The notes under the pieces: generated by a model | The model's input: only the letters and a program-made list of their open reading frames with translations | What the model was told of the DNA's origin: nothing | Databases searched by the model: none | Shown: piece by piece, positions 12,835 to 20,795 of the stretch | Layout of the letters: the number at the start of each line of letters is the position of its first letter | How positions within the stretch are numbered: position 1 is the first letter of the stretch | Translations under genes and position numbers: made by a program | Assembly (NCBI GenBank): GCA_014728765.1 | Contig: WJLA01000023.1 | Coordinates: 1-25,728, forward strand | From: Candidatus Peregrinibacteria bacterium | Lineage (GTDB): Bacteria > Patescibacteriota > Gracilibacteria > UBA1369 | Direction of reading: 5' to 3' | Length of the DNA stretch: 25,728 nt

Positions 12835-13236
12835 CTATTTGACTTTTTCCTCTTTGCCATTTAAATATAATCTCATTTCCGGTTGAATTTGTATTCTTAC
12901 AGGACCGCTTTCAAGGTCCAAACTAAGGTCAACCGGATTGGGTGGAAGCTTGAGGAGGGTCTTTGACAAATCTTCATTTCTTTGAGCAATTTCTTCTTCT
13001 TTTTTTAATTTCATTTCTTTCAATTGAATATAACTTTCTTCTTGAAGTAATTCTTGTTCCCATTCTTCTTTAAATGCTTTTATTTGTTTACGTAGGTCTT
13101 TATAAGCTTTTTCAAGGTCTTGATATTCTTCATTATCAATTTTTTCTTCATCTTTGATGTCTTTTTTTATACCTCTAAGTTCTTGTTTTAGTTTTGCAAT
13201 TTCTTGAATTAGTTGTCTTATTTTGTCTTCGATCAT
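12835..13236 (-). CDS. Hypothetical coiled-coil protein
   Basis: E/K/L-rich heptad pattern over ~100 aa, then a short beta-type tail (GPVRIQIQPEMRLYLNGKEEK). Confidence 0.75.
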   Translation of the reverse strand: MIEDKIRQLIQEIAKLKQELRGIKKDIKDEEKIDNEEYQDLEKAYKDLRKQIKAFKEEWEQELLQEESYIQLKEMKLKKEEEIAQRNEDLSKTLLKLPPNPVDLSLDLESGPVRIQIQPEMRLYLNGKEEKVK

Positions 13237-13267: not shown

Positions 13268-13834
13268 TTGTCACAGATGGAAATGATTGGCAAATTCAGG
13301 ACTTTTGGAGGTAAGATCATTATTCCACATGAATATGCCTATTATTTTTTTAAAAAACTGAAAAAAGCAGGAAAAACTATAGATCAAGAAACATTGGAGG
13401 AAAGTATTTTTAATTTGGAAAAGACTTTTGAAGAAGAGAAGGATTATTTAATTGAAGTTTTCTTGGATTCGGGGGGTGACGTTTTTATTGATAAAAAACA
13501 GTTGTTTAAGCCGAACTCGGATCAATTGAAAGCGGGAGAAAAGCTAAATGATTTGAATCAAAAATGTGTTTTTTGGTTTAAAAGAGATGGTTATCTATAT
13601 TATGTGGAGGATAATTTGACTGACTTGTTGGCGATTTATATTCTGCGAATATTGCAAGAAAAAATTGCAATTTGTCCTATCGATAGTGAAAAAGCTATAG
13701 AAATGTTAGAAAATGCAGAGGAGGCGTTTTATGTGGATTCTGAAAAAGGAATTATTTCTTTGTTCGAAGTGAATGGGGTTGCAATGGGAAATTCAAGATT
13801 TTACGCTAACTATTTAAGAAATTATCTTGAATAG
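13268..13834 (+). CDS. Hypothetical protein; TTG start called, ATG at 13277 or 13283 is plausible
   Basis: A 188-aa ORF immediately upstream of, and co-oriented with, the transketolase N-subunit; no family recognised. Confidence 0.7.
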   Translation: MSQMEMIGKFRTFGGKIIIPHEYAYYFFKKLKKAGKTIDQETLEESIFNLEKTFEEEKDYLIEVFLDSGGDVFIDKKQLFKPNSDQLKAGEKLNDLNQKCVFWFKRDGYLYYVEDNLTDLLAIYILRILQEKIAICPIDSEKAIEMLENAEEAFYVDSEKGIISLFEVNGVAMGNSRFYANYLRNYLE

Positions 13835-13862: not shown

Positions 13863-14744
13863 ATGAATTATCAGGAATATTTGACGGCTCTTCGTAGAAA
13901 AGCCACTGAGATAAGAATTAACACTTTAAAAGCTATTAGTAATGCGGGTTCCGGTCACACCGGAAGTTCTCTTTCAGCTGTGGATATATTGGTTGCTTTA
14001 TATTATGGAGAAAATCATGAAGGTCCTTTTATGAATATTGATCCGGTTAAACCGGGCTGGGAGGATCAAGATTATTTTGTCTTGTCTAAAGGTCAAGCTG
14101 CTCCTGTTTTATATTCCATTTTGGTTGATTTGGGTTATTTTGATGCGGATGAATTGAATTTTTATAAGCAGATGAACAGTTTGCTTTCAGTATCACCCAG
14201 GTCAAGAATTCCGGGTGTAGCTGTTAGTTCAGGTGCTCCGGGGCAAGGTTTATCTTCTGCTGTGGGATTAGCATTGGCACTTAGGATGGATAGAGCCAGA
14301 AATAAGGTGTTCACGTTGATTGGAGATGCTGAATTTGCTACGGGCGATGTTTGGGAAAGTTTGCTTTATGCAGGACATAACAAGTTGGGAAATATGGTAG
14401 TGATAGTTGATAGAAATACAATTCAATTGGATGGAATAGTGAGAAATCTTAATATTGCTGATCCAATAGCTGAAAAATTTGATGCTATCGGATTCAGGAC
14501 AATTAATGTGTTTGCAGGTCATGACTATGATCAGTTATTGGATGCATTCGAAAAGGCTATTAGTGAAACAAGATTGCCTGTGGCGATAGTTTGCAAGACT
14601 GTAAAAGGTAAAGGAGTTGATTTTGCTGAAAATAAAGGCTTTTATCATGATACTCCTTTGTCGGAGCAGGAATTGGAAGAGGCAATACGAAGTTTGACTC
14701 GATATCAAGAAAGTTTGAGTAATATAGCGGGACATTATGAGTAA
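13863..14744 (+). CDS. Transketolase N-terminal (ThDP-binding) subunit homolog, active site degenerate
   Basis: GSGHTGSSLSAVDIL, DYFVLSKGQAAP, GQGLSSAVGLALA, GDAE, DRNTIQLDG, GHD and KTVKGKGV align with two-subunit transketolase N-halves; several catalytic residues are substituted (see findings). Confidence 0.88.
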   Translation: MNYQEYLTALRRKATEIRINTLKAISNAGSGHTGSSLSAVDILVALYYGENHEGPFMNIDPVKPGWEDQDYFVLSKGQAAPVLYSILVDLGYFDADELNFYKQMNSLLSVSPRSRIPGVAVSSGAPGQGLSSAVGLALALRMDRARNKVFTLIGDAEFATGDVWESLLYAGHNKLGNMVVIVDRNTIQLDGIVRNLNIADPIAEKFDAIGFRTINVFAGHDYDQLLDAFEKAISETRLPVAIVCKTVKGKGVDFAENKGFYHDTPLSEQELEEAIRSLTRYQESLSNIAGHYE

Positions 14745-15189
14745 TTTTTATTTAATCTGGATGTTAGTCGGTTTGATGATCAATGTGACGCCGTATATGG
14801 TTGAAGGTGACTCGATGTATCCCAATTTGGAAACGGGAGATGTTTTTTTGATAGATCAAAGATTGGGTGAAATTGAAAGAGGGGATGTGATTGTTTTTAG
14901 TTATGATGATGAATACTATTACGTAAAAAGAGTGATAGGTTTACCGGGGGAAACGGTTAAAATTGAGGATGAACAGGTTTTCATCAGAAATGAAGAAGGA
15001 CGTTATGAAAGCTTGAATGAGCCGTATTTGGCTCAAGCGTTTGATTATGGAGATGAAAGATTTTTCAAAGTTCCGGAAGGTGAATATTTCGTGATGGGTG
15101 ATAATAGAGATTCAAGTAGAGATTCAAGATATTTTACTGATCCTTATATTGGTAGTAATTTAATTAGCGGAAAATATATTTGGCCTTAA
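14737..15189 (+). CDS. lepB: Signal peptidase I (short, P-type)
   Basis: Catalytic Ser in GDSMYP, Lys in YVKRVIGLPGE, RGDVIVF and YFVMGDNRDSSRDSR. Confidence 0.9.
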   Translation: MSNFYLIWMLVGLMINVTPYMVEGDSMYPNLETGDVFLIDQRLGEIERGDVIVFSYDDEYYYVKRVIGLPGETVKIEDEQVFIRNEEGRYESLNEPYLAQAFDYGDERFFKVPEGEYFVMGDNRDSSRDSRYFTDPYIGSNLISGKYIWP

Positions 15190-15198
15190 TTTATTGAA

Positions 15199-15720
15199 AT
15201 GTTAAAAATAATATTAATCAGTGGAATTTGTATTTTATTTTCAGCTTGTAATATGTCGTCTGCGCCTGAATCAGAACAAATAAGAATTGAGAATGAAAGA
15301 GCTAATGACAATTTGTCGCAGTCTAATGTAATGGTTTTGCCAAAAAAGCGGTTATTGATTTTAGATCATCAGGAAAATTCTATTGAATTCAATGTGGAAG
15401 TGGCGGAAACGCCCTTAGAGAGGCAGCAAGGCTTAATGTTTAGAGAAAAATTGCCGGCAGATGAAGGTATGTTGTTCATTTTTCAAAGTTCAGGAGAGGT
15501 GAATTTTTGGATGAAAAACACGTTGATTCCACTTGATATAATTTATATTAATTCAGCTAAAGAAATCGTTCATATTGCCAAAAACGCAATTCCTTGTGAA
15601 GAAGAGCCCTGTCCGCTTTATTCTTCGAATGGAGACACACAGTTTGTTTTGGAAATCAATGCAGGTTTGTCAGATCAGCTGGGTATAGAAATTGGAGATC
15701 GAGTCGAGTGGCTTGAATGA
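15199..15720 (+). CDS. DUF192 family lipoprotein
   Basis: Lipobox FSAC, EVAETPLERQQGLMFR, GMLFIF, FWMKNTLIPLDII and FVLEINAG. Confidence 0.88.
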   Translation: MLKIILISGICILFSACNMSSAPESEQIRIENERANDNLSQSNVMVLPKKRLLILDHQENSIEFNVEVAETPLERQQGLMFREKLPADEGMLFIFQSSGEVNFWMKNTLIPLDIIYINSAKEIVHIAKNAIPCEEEPCPLYSSNGDTQFVLEINAGLSDQLGIEIGDRVEWLE

Positions 15721-16656
15721 TTAGTTTTCCAGCCAGGCGTTTTTGACTTGTTCATAAATTCCTTTAGGAGTTAATTGATGTTTTTCAAGCACTTCTTGAT
15801 ATTTACCTGAAACAAGAGTTTCAGTTGTACCTATTTTTAGAATTTTGCGTGGTTTGTTTTGATTATAAATATTGATAATCTGATCTCCCAAACCGCCCAT
15901 GATAGTATGTTCTTCAATTGTAACAATTAAAGGAAAATCCGCTGTCATTTCCAATATTTTTGTTTTGTTTAAAGGTTTAATTGAAGAAACATTGATGATT
16001 TGGACACTGGTTCCTCTTTTTTCCAGCTCAGAAGCTGCTTCCATGGCATTGTGTAAAGCTGAGCCATAGGTCAAAAAACATATTTCTTCACCGGATTTGA
16101 TTATATCGGGTTTAGTAAAATCAAATTGGTGATTGTATTCATAGATGTTGGTGACGGTGTTTTTTGCCAAACGAAGATAAAATACTCCGAATTCATTGAT
16201 CATTTTGTCCATCATGGCTTTCATTTCAATTGCATCCGCCGGACTATAAACAGTAATTTCCGGTAATGATGTCAGAAGGGCAATATCCTCTGTCATTTCA
16301 TTGTGAACACCATTTTGACTGTTGCTTAATCCACTGTTTGATCCAATTAATTTGATGTTTAAATTGTTGTGACAGAGATTACTTTTGATAGTATGCCAAC
16401 CTTTACCAATTATGGAAGAGGCGTTACCGCAACAAATTGCAATTTTACCTCTACTGGTAATGCCTGCGGCTTGATTTAGCATGTTGGTTGAAGAAAGCGG
16501 AGAATGAATGAGTTTCTCCGGAAAACTTTTGGCAAATTTCAGGGTATTCAGATGATTAGAGAGGTCATTATCAAGCACAACCAGGTTTTTAACTCGATGA
16601 CCAAGTTTTTCCAAATATTCGCCAAACGTTTTTTGTAGATTCACTTTTTCGTCCAT
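15721..16656 (-). CDS. Transketolase C-terminal (pyrimidine-binding plus C-domain) subunit homolog, active site degenerate
   Basis: LVVLDNDLS, FAKSFPE, EDIALL, VYSPAD, YLRLAK, VQIINVSSIKPL and VTIEEHTIMGGLG align with transketolase C-halves; the GIAEQ and EDGxxHQ motifs are replaced. Confidence 0.85.
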   Translation of the reverse strand: MDEKVNLQKTFGEYLEKLGHRVKNLVVLDNDLSNHLNTLKFAKSFPEKLIHSPLSSTNMLNQAAGITSRGKIAICCGNASSIIGKGWHTIKSNLCHNNLNIKLIGSNSGLSNSQNGVHNEMTEDIALLTSLPEITVYSPADAIEMKAMMDKMINEFGVFYLRLAKNTVTNIYEYNHQFDFTKPDIIKSGEEICFLTYGSALHNAMEAASELEKRGTSVQIINVSSIKPLNKTKILEMTADFPLIVTIEEHTIMGGLGDQIINIYNQNKPRKILKIGTTETLVSGKYQEVLEKHQLTPKGIYEQVKNAWLEN

Positions 16657-16694: not shown

Positions 16695-17174
16695 ATGCGT
16701 ATATATATTGGTTCAGATCATGCAGGATTTCAATTGAAAAATGATATAAAAACATATTTGGAAGGAAAATATTCTTCAGATAATAGTTTTTCAATTCTTG
16801 ATTTGGGTGTTTTTACCACTGATTCTGCCGATTATCCTGATATTGCCAGAGAAGTTGGTGAAAAAGTCAGGGAGAATGAAAATGAAGATGGAGGATCTTT
16901 AGGTATTTTAATTTGTGGAAGTGGTGTCGGAATGAGTATTGCTGCCAATAAAATGAGTGGGATTAGAGCTGTATTGGCCAATAACGAAATTCAAGCCAGA
17001 CTTGCTAAAGCTCATAATAAAGCAAATGTGCTATGTTTAGGCGAAAGATTAACCGGGAAAGATTTGGCAATTGCCATTGTGGAATCTTTTTTGGAGGGTT
17101 CATTTGATGGAGCGGAAAGACATAAAAGAAGAGTTGATAAAATTAATGATATTCATAAACAATATGGTCCATGA
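16695..17174 (+). CDS. rpiB: Ribose-5-phosphate isomerase B
   Basis: GSDHAGF, DYPD, ILICGSGVGMSIAANK, HNKANVLCLGER and RHKRRV are intact. Confidence 0.95.
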   Translation: MRIYIGSDHAGFQLKNDIKTYLEGKYSSDNSFSILDLGVFTTDSADYPDIAREVGEKVRENENEDGGSLGILICGSGVGMSIAANKMSGIRAVLANNEIQARLAKAHNKANVLCLGERLTGKDLAIAIVESFLEGSFDGAERHKRRVDKINDIHKQYGP

Positions 17175-17803
17175 GAAAAATACAAGTAGCTCCTTCAATT
17201 TTGTCTGCTGATTTTGGTAAACTGTCTGAGGAAATAGCTTCAATTGAAGCATATGCTGATGCTTTGCATATTGATGTGATGGATGGGCATTTTGTTCCAA
17301 ATCTTTCTTTTGGTTATCCTGTTGCGAAATGGATAAAATCTGATTTGCCCAAAGAAGTTCATTTAATGGTCTATCATCCTGAAAATTATTATGATGTTTT
17401 TGCAAAAATGAATCCTGAAATTATTTTGATTCAAGTAGAAGCGGTACCACATTTGCATAGGCAAATTCAAAAAATAAAAGAGCTTGGAATAAAAGCGGGA
17501 GTAGTTTTGAATCCTGCAACTCCACTTTCGAGTATTGAATATGTTTTGGAAGATTTGGACAGAGTTTTGATTATGAGTGTTAATCCGGGATTTGGTGGTC
17601 AAAAGTTTATCTCAGGAGTTTTACAAAAGATTAAGAAGCTTAGAGAAATCGCTCCGGATTTGGATATTGAAGTGGATGGTGGCATAAATGAAGAAACTGC
17701 GGCTCTGTGCAAAGAAGCGGGCGCTAATATTTTTGTTGCCGGTTCATATATTTTCGGTAGTGAAAATAGAGCTAATGCTATTGCCAGTTTAAAAGGAGAG
17801 TAG
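17171..17803 (+). CDS. rpe: Ribulose-phosphate 3-epimerase
   Basis: APSILSADF, HIDVMDGHFVPN, VHLM, MSVNPGFGGQKF, EVDGG and FVAGS; ATGA overlap with rpiB. Confidence 0.96.
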   Translation: MRKIQVAPSILSADFGKLSEEIASIEAYADALHIDVMDGHFVPNLSFGYPVAKWIKSDLPKEVHLMVYHPENYYDVFAKMNPEIILIQVEAVPHLHRQIQKIKELGIKAGVVLNPATPLSSIEYVLEDLDRVLIMSVNPGFGGQKFISGVLQKIKKLREIAPDLDIEVDGGINEETAALCKEAGANIFVAGSYIFGSENRANAIASLKGE

Positions 17804-17829: not shown

Positions 17830-18960
17830 ATGAATCATTTGGATTATGATAATGTTTTTGAAGAGGCATTAGTAGAAGTCAGTTCATCTAAGTGCTTAAA
17901 AAACATTAGAAATGAAATATTGCAGGTTTTTTTTGAAGATAGTTCGTCAGAAGGTGTTGTCGAATTTGATCAGAATTTGGAATATTTAGCAAAATTATCG
18001 ATAGAATTTATGAATTCTCAAAATGAGAATTATTATTTGAAAGGTTTTGATGATTTTAGTAAAAGTGATTTTTTGGAGTCAATTGAAATATCGTCTAATT
18101 ACTTGGAGTTAAGTCAATTTTTTTGGAATAAGGAAGTGCAAGCGATTATAACTGAATTGACAAGAATAATTTTGATGAACAACAAAAATGATATTAATGC
18201 CGAATTAATTCATGAATATATTTTTAAATATGTAGTTTATTTGTTTTGTAACTTTACTTTGTTTAAGCAGGGTCTAGATTTGAATATTGTTGATTTGGAA
18301 AATTTAGCTTCTCACAGGAAGATTAATGAAAATAATTATTTGGATTATGTTAAAAATAATCCTGATTTAGAAAGGATAATGTCAACGGAACAAGTTAAAG
18401 AAAGCTTATTTATGTATTTAAAAAGAACTTTTGATGAAGGGCAAAATGACGAATATGTTGTTCCACTGTCATTTATCAGAGATCTTTACAGATTAATAGA
18501 GGGAATACATTGTCTCAGCAATGAAATAGTTATTGAGGCAGTTGATATAAAAAAGCATGGTTGGGAGCTGGAATTTTTGCATAAATTCTCTACGAAAAAT
18601 CTTTATCCTCAAGTTAATGAAATTAAACATAATTTGAAGCCATTATTGTATGATTTGTTTGAAGAAACAAATATTGTTGCTGATTACGAGATTGATGAAA
18701 TCAGTTTTCAAATATTAGTCAGTCCGATGATAATCAGTGTATTGAATGTTGTTATTTGTTTAAGAAGTGGAGTTAGCCCCGCTTTATTGAATATGACAAA
18801 ATTGGAAAAATCAAAAATCGAACATACTTTACTGTCTTTGGGTAGATTGGTTGAATTATCGGATGGTTTATCGTCCGATTTGCAGATAAGGCTTAATATT
18901 AACAGTGAAACTCAAAAATTAATAGGGTTTAAACCGGAAAAAAATCCTAATCTTAACTAG
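17830..18960 (+). CDS. Hypothetical protein (376 aa, acidic, predicted helical)
   Basis: Long uninterrupted ORF; no family recognised. It overlaps the convergent gene by 8 nt. Confidence 0.7.
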   Translation: MNHLDYDNVFEEALVEVSSSKCLKNIRNEILQVFFEDSSSEGVVEFDQNLEYLAKLSIEFMNSQNENYYLKGFDDFSKSDFLESIEISSNYLELSQFFWNKEVQAIITELTRIILMNNKNDINAELIHEYIFKYVVYLFCNFTLFKQGLDLNIVDLENLASHRKINENNYLDYVKNNPDLERIMSTEQVKESLFMYLKRTFDEGQNDEYVVPLSFIRDLYRLIEGIHCLSNEIVIEAVDIKKHGWELEFLHKFSTKNLYPQVNEIKHNLKPLLYDLFEETNIVADYEIDEISFQILVSPMIISVLNVVICLRSGVSPALLNMTKLEKSKIEHTLLSLGRLVELSDGLSSDLQIRLNINSETQKLIGFKPEKNPNLN

Positions 18961-20718: not shown

Positions 20719-20795
20719 GCACCCGTAGCTCAGCTGGATAGAGCATCGGCTTGCGGAGCCGGGGGTCGTAGGTTCGAATCCTGCCGGGTGCACCA
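20719..20795 (+). tRNA. trnR: tRNA-Arg, anticodon GCG, with encoded CCA
   Basis: Acceptor GCACCCG/CGGGTGC plus ACCA; D-arm GCTC-AGCTGGATA-GAGC; anticodon arm TCGGC-TTGCGGA-GCCGG (GCG at 20753-20755); T-arm GTAGG-TTCGAAT-CCTGC; 77 nt. Confidence 0.96.

Follow-up and report, generated by a model that had tools for sequence, protein, structure and literature searches.

A degenerate split transketolase pair in Candidatus Peribacteria, a candidate pseudoenzyme maintained by selection

The stretch of DNA described here, to which we refer as the window (contig WJLA01000023.1 of assembly GCA_014728765.1, 25,728 nucleotides), comes from a tiny-genome bacterium of the candidate phyla radiation (CPR), whose relatives are the Candidatus Peribacteria. 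It carries a transketolase (TK) divided over two genes, which encode an N-subunit (TKN) and a C-subunit (TKC). Only four of 17 key residues are left in this pair, compared with all 17 in a one-piece paralog encoded elsewhere in the same genome, and yet purifying selection is seen across the 11 genera of its clade. We consider it fairly probable that the pair is a folded, paired, TK-like pseudoenzyme that is kept by selection and does not perform ketol transfer, a lack of activity that we infer from the loss of residues. An earlier examination of the window by eye, the sequence-only reading, had already proposed a pair of intact but degenerate subunits. Our searches of the literature on Peribacteria transketolase, on transketolase pseudoenzymes and on split transketolases turned up no account of bacterial proteins of this kind.

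Key residues of the split pair

TKN (13863..14744, plus strand, 293 amino acids) consists of the PP domain (Pfam PF00456 Transketolase_N, 2.6e-44), and TKC (15721..16656, minus strand, 311 amino acids) consists of the Pyr and C-terminal domains (PF02779 Transket_pyr, 2e-16; PF02780 Transketolase_C, 3.4e-23), which is the domain architecture of split-type enzymes. Both frames are open from end to end, without stop or frameshift, so that the two subunits are indeed full-length, as the sequence-only reading had it. In a phmmer search against all PDB chains, the top matches were the two chains of the split TK from Carboxydothermus hydrogenoformans (6YAK N chain for TKN, 3.3e-64; 6YAJ C chain for TKC, 2.4e-51), which is an active heterotetramer (PMC13663882). 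The window pair shares with it the division into a PP chain and a Pyr/C-terminal chain, has the same length and shows no large indels. The residue losses given below, in E. coli numbering, come from the alignments with its two chains.

We scored 17 key residues, eight in the N-subunit and nine in the C-subunit. According to the established transketolase literature, Asp155, Gly156, Asn185, His66, His261, Glu160, Glu411, Phe434 and Phe437 anchor or activate the cofactor, thiamine diphosphate (ThDP), His26, His100, His473 and Asp469 take part in catalysis, and Arg358, Ser385, His461 and Arg520 bind the sugar phosphate. The window pair retains four of them, His26, Asp155, Asn185 and His261, and the other 13, at which the Carboxydothermus enzyme has the canonical residue throughout, are replaced. 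In TKN, the replacements are His66 to Gln (CAA, 14094-14096), His100 to Ser (14193-14195), Gly156 to Ala and Glu160 to Thr; the ThDP-Mg motif GDG-X(25-30)-N thus reads GDAE...VDRN. In TKC, all nine scored residues are affected: the activating Glu411 is Ser (TCA, 16489-16491), the pyrimidine-stacking Phe434 and Phe437 are Asn and Ser, the phosphate binders Arg358, Ser385, His461 and Arg520 are Gln, His, Asn and Lys, and Asp469 and His473 are both Asn. Over both subunits, the set formed by the five histidines (26, 66, 100, 261 and 473) and Asp469 is reduced to His26 and His261.

These calls bear out the sequence-only reading in detail. Its N-subunit substitutions (SKGH to SKGQ, LQGHP to LSVSP, GSLG to GAPG and GDGE..EG to GDAE..TG) all recur in the alignment with 6YAK, and those of the C-subunit (Arg358 to Gln, GIAEQ to PLSST, STFAVF to CGNASS, THAG to SNSG, EDGASHQ to QNGVHNE and RLGR to RLAK) in that with 6YAJ. 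The three codon positions given above were exact, the four retained residues are the ones it had named, and the change of Ser385 to His is a further loss that it had not listed.

Such losses are uncommon among split transketolases at large. Each N-subunit key residue is kept in about 85-97% of 124 split-size family representatives, which a search among 1.84 billion proteins had provided; all eight are kept in 77 of the 124, and the degenerate members are mostly the nearest matches of the window's TKN. In a published panel of split transketolases, the canonical His100 was kept in all ten enzymes (PMC13663882). Membership in the DXS family was considered and rejected: DXS models yield 57-112 bits against cut-offs of 395-510, and TK models score higher. 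Judged from its sequence, the window pair is a split transketolase by fold and descent, albeit one that lacks the activating Glu, the full catalytic His set and the phosphate binders of the family.

Residue loss in related genomes

To place the pair among its relatives, we searched 40 further genomes of its family and order, each representing a different genus, which makes 41 with the window's own (G000). Within the family, the split pair occurs in 23 of 25 genomes, that of the window included, and the two genomes that lack it have a completeness of 70% and 82%; the pair also extends to many further families within the order. A second, distinct split type, which is canonical, occurs in four genomes.

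Across the 39 pairs for which the 17 residues were tabulated, residue loss forms a gradient, with the window pair among the most degenerate. At its canonical end stand G032 and G039, whose family-type pairs are complete (17/17) and in whose genomes neither a fused Tkt nor a phosphoketolase was found; all other family-type pairs are degenerate. In G018, G019 and G006, only phosphate-binding residues and His473 are lost. In a sister clade (genomes G011, G014, G003, G007, G017, G009, G005, G025 and G026; loci L014, L019-L023, L069, L078, L079 and L083), the place of Glu411 is consistently taken by Leu, Ile or Met and that of His100 by Tyr or Phe, and His26, His66 and His261 are kept. In the window's own clade of 11 genera, finally, His66, Gly156 and Glu160 are lost in all 11, His100 in ten and His26 in nine. 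Throughout this gradient, no family-type pair has lost Asp155, and Asn185 and His261 are near-invariant; this Mg2+/diphosphate anchor comprises the only near-invariant key residues across the family.

The degeneration is therefore common to the relatives, a point that the sequence-only reading had proposed to test. What the genera share are these losses and not the residues that took their place, which vary from one genus to the next; in the Pyr domain, no new consensus has formed. The loss of Glu411 is not shared either, being confined within the clade to the window (Ser) and G021 (Asp). Such genus-to-genus variation is the pattern that sequences show when catalytic constraint has been released.

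Degenerate pairs may extend beyond this group, since a metagenomic contig from another lineage carries one as well (L088:67-3879, Logan SRR22387838, 45% GC). Its N-subunit has two of the eight key residues, Glu411 is replaced by Ala in its C-subunit, and the pair lies directly upstream of prs-rpiB-rpe, with no lepB or DUF192 gene between the halves.

Selection and rates of evolution

Synonymous divergence (dS) between the genera is saturated and the NG86 estimate is undefined for most pairs, so that only the non-synonymous divergence (dN) and upper-bound ratios can be used. Within these bounds, TKN shows a dN of 0.24-0.36 and TKC one of 0.54-0.68, and those dN/dS ratios for which dS could be computed are 0.05-0.27. 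A relative close enough for a cleaner estimate was not found in a search that included 5.8 billion proteins, in which the nearest relative of the window's TKC is 45% identical.

As a yardstick, we compared the identities of several proteins across the same pair of genomes, G000 and G016. These are 86% for tal, 71% for xfp, 70% for TKN, 64% for the fused Tkt, 62% for rpe, 61% for rpiB, 61% for pgi, 57% for lepB, 50% for DUF192 and 45% for TKC. TKN, which is likewise 70% identical between the window and its nearest genus, is hence as constrained as genuine enzymes of central metabolism, whose identities it equals or exceeds (tal aside). Accordingly, 136 of its 293 positions are conserved in at least ten of the 11 clade genera, among them the clade-specific residues Ala156, Asp263 and Gly176 beside the cofactor anchor; Ala156, which stands in the place of Gly156, is present in all 11.

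In maximum-likelihood trees, the 11-genus clade is fully supported and sits on a long stem (0.64 for TKN and 0.59 for TKC). The two subunits differ in what follows: the tips of TKN are short (0.1-0.45), whereas those of TKC (0.24-1.06) are 2-4.6 times longer. Outside the clade, both subunits evolve at equal rates. For TKN, the long stem followed by short tips fits a functional shift and subsequent conservation.

The faster evolution of TKC, together with the free variation of the catalytic sites, raises the question of whether the genes are incipient pseudogenes in neutral decay. Around 5.8% of non-synonymous changes in TKC codons would give stops, and under neutrality about 12 nonsense changes would be expected on the window's terminal branch alone; the probability of finding none is about 9e-6. 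Yet the TKC frame is open in all genera, and the pair is intact throughout the 11-genus clade. With TKN as well conserved as real enzymes and a confidently modeled complex (see below), we regard neutral decay as barely credible, and simple pseudogene decay is rejected. TKC is under weaker but real constraint. The purifying selection that the sequence-only reading had presumed is thus seen in both subunits, in the low dN/dS, in the high identity of TKN and in an open TKC frame that neutrality would leave with a probability of roughly 1e-5.

Alternatively, the pair may still bind and use ThDP (or a cofactor related to it), with a changed mechanism and a substrate that is new and non-phosphorylated. 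Such a neofunctionalized ThDP enzyme is the main rival to a pseudoenzyme. It would account for the shape of the TKN tree, for the clade-invariant Ala156, Asp263 and Gly176 beside a near-invariant Asp155, Asn185 and His261, and for the retention of Glu411 in nine of the 11 clade genera. The order of loss is in line with it as well, for Arg358, Ser385, His473 and Arg520 go first (in G018, G019 and G006), which resembles a change of substrate, and the consistent replacements in the sister clade have parallels among working enzymes. Glyoxylate carboligase, for example, is an active ThDP enzyme without the activating Glu, with a hydrophobic residue at the canonical position, as in the sister-clade pairs with their Leu, Ile or Met. 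DXS enzymes, in turn, have Phe or Tyr at the position of His100 (PMC13663882). By analogy, the sister clade may harbor a working, re-purposed ThDP enzyme. The window pair is further removed from such precedents: glyoxylate carboligase belongs to another branch of the ThDP superfamily, and the window has Ser in place of Glu411 and has in addition lost both pyrimidine-stacking Phe residues and catalytic His residues. Moreover, the active-site positions of the Pyr domain show no new consensus among the genera, and the 2-4.6-fold faster evolution of TKC would be unexpected for one half of a working active site. We therefore find a neofunctionalized enzyme unlikely, although it deserves more weight than any other rival.

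Predicted structure and pairing

The predicted complex of TKN and TKC has a predicted local distance difference test (pLDDT) score of 87-92, and the prediction joins the chains via the PP-Pyr interface, with an interface score (ipSAE) of 0.68 as compared with 0.14 for the best control. Among 78 solved complexes, 51 reach the mark applied to this score, as do two of 108 mismatched pairs.

The canonical transketolase and its metabolic context

A second, canonical transketolase, for which the sequence-only reading had recommended a search, does exist in the genome. When all of G000 was searched with PF00456 and PF02779, exactly one other TK locus emerged, a fused Tkt of 635 amino acids on contig C37 (L002:1432-3339) with 17/17 key residues. 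It is homologous to the window pair in its PP, Pyr and C-terminal domains (31% identity to the N-subunit and 23% to the C-subunit), from which it differs in its complete set of residues, in its genomic location and in the score of the Pyr-domain model (113 versus 62 bits). It also serves as an internal control, as the fused Tkt proteins of G000, G016, G022 and G004 all have 17/17 residues at an overall identity of 55-64%.

The fused Tkt lies in an xfp-tal-pgi-tkt cluster, with genes for phosphoketolase, transaldolase and glucose-6-phosphate isomerase. In full, this cluster (L064:59-6464 and L002) comprises xfp, a small open reading frame (ORF), tal, pgi, the fused tkt and a LOG-like gene, and it is syntenic in G016, G022 and G004. 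G010, a closed genome, has a cluster (xfp-tal-pgi-LOG-like) that is syntenic as well except that the fused tkt is cleanly missing; tal is kept, no other TK was found, and the degenerate pair is retained. G001, G002, G013 and G015 are without both fused tkt and tal and keep the degenerate pair, too. Retention of the pair is thus independent of a canonical Tkt or of a complete non-oxidative pathway. Altogether, no canonical transketolase was found in seven of the 41 sampled genera (G001, G002, G010, G013, G015, G003 and G031). Phosphoketolase is present in 33 of the 41 genomes, including six of these seven, which points to it as an outlet for pentoses; the remaining one, G003, is 90% complete, and neither Tkt nor Xfp was found in it.

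This context bears on the possibility that the pair is an ordinary, if weakened, transketolase of the non-oxidative pentose phosphate pathway. Its genes adjoin rpiB and rpe, G010 has tal and no other TK, and published reconstructions of Peribacteria metabolism assume a working pentose phosphate pathway as a bypass of the missing phosphofructokinase (PMC4736985). Against this stand the loss of 13 of the 17 key residues, Glu411, His66, His100, His473, Arg358 and Arg520 among them, the intact fused Tkt in the same genome, and the four relatives that have lost tal and fused tkt together and kept the pair. In yeast transketolase, single substitutions at several of these positions reduce activity to a few percent or less. 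A weakened transketolase consequently strikes us as very improbable.

It is somewhat easier to imagine, but still quite unlikely, that the pair acts as a modulator, forming mixed oligomers with the fused Tkt or with phosphoketolase and tuning their activity. The precedent is human TKTL1, which does not bind ThDP, but heterodimerizes with TKT and shifts its activities (PMC12525540). TKTL1 is the closest analog in kind to the window pair, being a TK paralog that kept the fold, lost cofactor and catalytic determinants and exists alongside a canonical TK. Partners would be at hand, since G000 has both the fused Tkt and Xfp, and several relatives have xfp no more than a few kb away from the pair. 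TKTL1, however, derives from a fused eukaryotic TK through the deletion of 38 residues, whereas the window pair is bacterial, of independent origin, and bears point replacements over both subunits without any deletion; furthermore, several relatives keep the pair without a canonical TK. Specifically, five members of the window's clade, G001, G002, G010, G013 and G015, retain it with no fused Tkt found, and G003 shows neither of the two proposed partners. The five clade members speak against any role for which the fused Tkt would be an indispensable partner.

With regard to the cofactor, neither a thiamine pyrophosphokinase (PF04263) nor a TPP riboswitch (RF00059) was found in G000, a genome that is 91% complete, so that absence is not shown for either. 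Thiamine biosynthesis genes have been reported absent in Peribacteria reconstructions (PMC4736985). G000 nevertheless encodes ThDP enzymes, namely the fused Tkt and phosphoketolase.

Gene neighborhood

The locus comprises six closely packed genes, in the order TKN, lepB-like, DUF192, TKC, rpiB and rpe. The lepB-like gene (14737..15189, plus strand; PF10502, 6e-34) encodes a signal peptidase I of the S26 type; its start overlaps the stop of TKN by 8 nucleotides, and it sits between TKN and TKC in most relatives. It is followed by the DUF192 gene (15199..15720, plus strand; PF02643, 1.3e-36), whose product has a hydrophobic, lipoprotein-like leader at its N-terminus and whose placement between the two halves is conserved across family and order. 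TKC converges on DUF192 with zero spacer. With these two genes intervening and TKC on the minus strand, the halves of the window pair are neither adjacent nor on the same strand, which is a further difference from the Carboxydothermus enzyme and a point that the sequence-only reading had left unmentioned. The gene order TKN-lepB-DUF192-TKC recurs across family and order, mostly on one strand, and TKC is inverted in the window's nearest clade.

Divergent from TKC, after a spacer of 38 bp, lies the gene for ribose-5-phosphate isomerase B (rpiB; 16695..17174, plus strand; PF02502, 4.8e-50), whose G016 ortholog occupies the same position (61% identity), and then that for ribulose-phosphate 3-epimerase (rpe; 17171..17803, plus strand; PF00834, 2e-73; 62% identity to the G016 ortholog). 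Upstream of TKN, a gene for a 188-residue protein without a Pfam match (13268..13834, plus strand) has homologs in the same place, immediately before TKN, in G016, G013, G022 and G004 (29-37% identity). A second Pfam-less protein flanks the locus on the other side (17830-18960, plus strand), and the minus strand carries, shortly before the locus, an ORF for a highly charged, coiled-coil-like protein of 133 residues that is rich in Lys and Glu (12835-13236).

A scan of the locus for promoters and terminators gave counts no higher than in shuffled sequence, and an Rfam scan had a tRNA at 20719-20792 as its only hit, with neither a riboswitch nor any other RNA in the vicinity of the locus. Over the window as a whole (1-25728), most long ORFs are on the plus strand, GC content is 28-40%, and GC skew is positive in nearly all 1-kb bins, with a maximum of 0.39.

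Interpretation and significance

Taken together, the evidence favors a maintained pseudoenzyme, with homology to TK and lost catalytic residues (4/17 as opposed to 17/17 in the fused paralog) on the one hand and purifying selection in 11 genera on the other. In this scenario, an ancestral split transketolase of the Peribacterales would have given rise to both halves. The actual TK step would fall to the fused Tkt encoded in the xfp-tal-pgi-tkt cluster. A further exit for pentose phosphates from the adjacent rpiB and rpe would be phosphoketolase, which can take the xylulose 5-phosphate that these two enzymes supply. As the fused Tkt and phosphoketolase would thus cover the pentose-phosphate steps, the degenerate pair would be left to serve a role other than that of a TK. 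Most likely, TKN binds Mg2+ and a diphosphate-bearing ligand, with TKC mainly as its structural partner, and the output may be sensing, storage or scaffolding.

Several points weigh against this interpretation. The loss of Glu411 alone is no proof of inactivity, given that glyoxylate carboligase is active without the canonical Glu, and the relatives that keep it (all in the clade but the window and G021) may still activate ThDP. G010, with its tal and no other TK, would make sense if the degenerate pair had residual TK activity. Likewise, the conserved clade-specific residues near the cofactor site fit a new enzymatic function no less than they fit a binding role, and the predicted complex may in part reflect the memory of solved TK structures.

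Beyond the question of catalysis, it is conceivable, if on the whole doubtful, that the pair represents a new functional class on the TK fold, either a non-catalytic binder or sensor of Mg2+ and a diphosphate ligand, possibly ThDP, or an enzyme of new chemistry, with TKN carrying the function. If so, the pair would be important enough for near-universal retention in the family, even after the loss of the classical transketolase and of transaldolase.

For the physiology of these bacteria, the main consequence concerns annotation. Given that degenerate halves are maintained while an intact one-piece Tkt is encoded elsewhere, 'transketolase' cannot be read as an activity in this group. This affects the argument for a pentose phosphate bypass in the CPR, which rests on genes annotated as transketolase, as most of the split ones in this family are without the catalytic machinery. 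As a pseudoenzyme, the pair would be a clear example, from bacteria, of a pseudo-transketolase that selection has maintained over a long time and in which the two subunits met an asymmetric fate, and a tractable system for studying what the fold of a ThDP enzyme does after catalysis has been lost.

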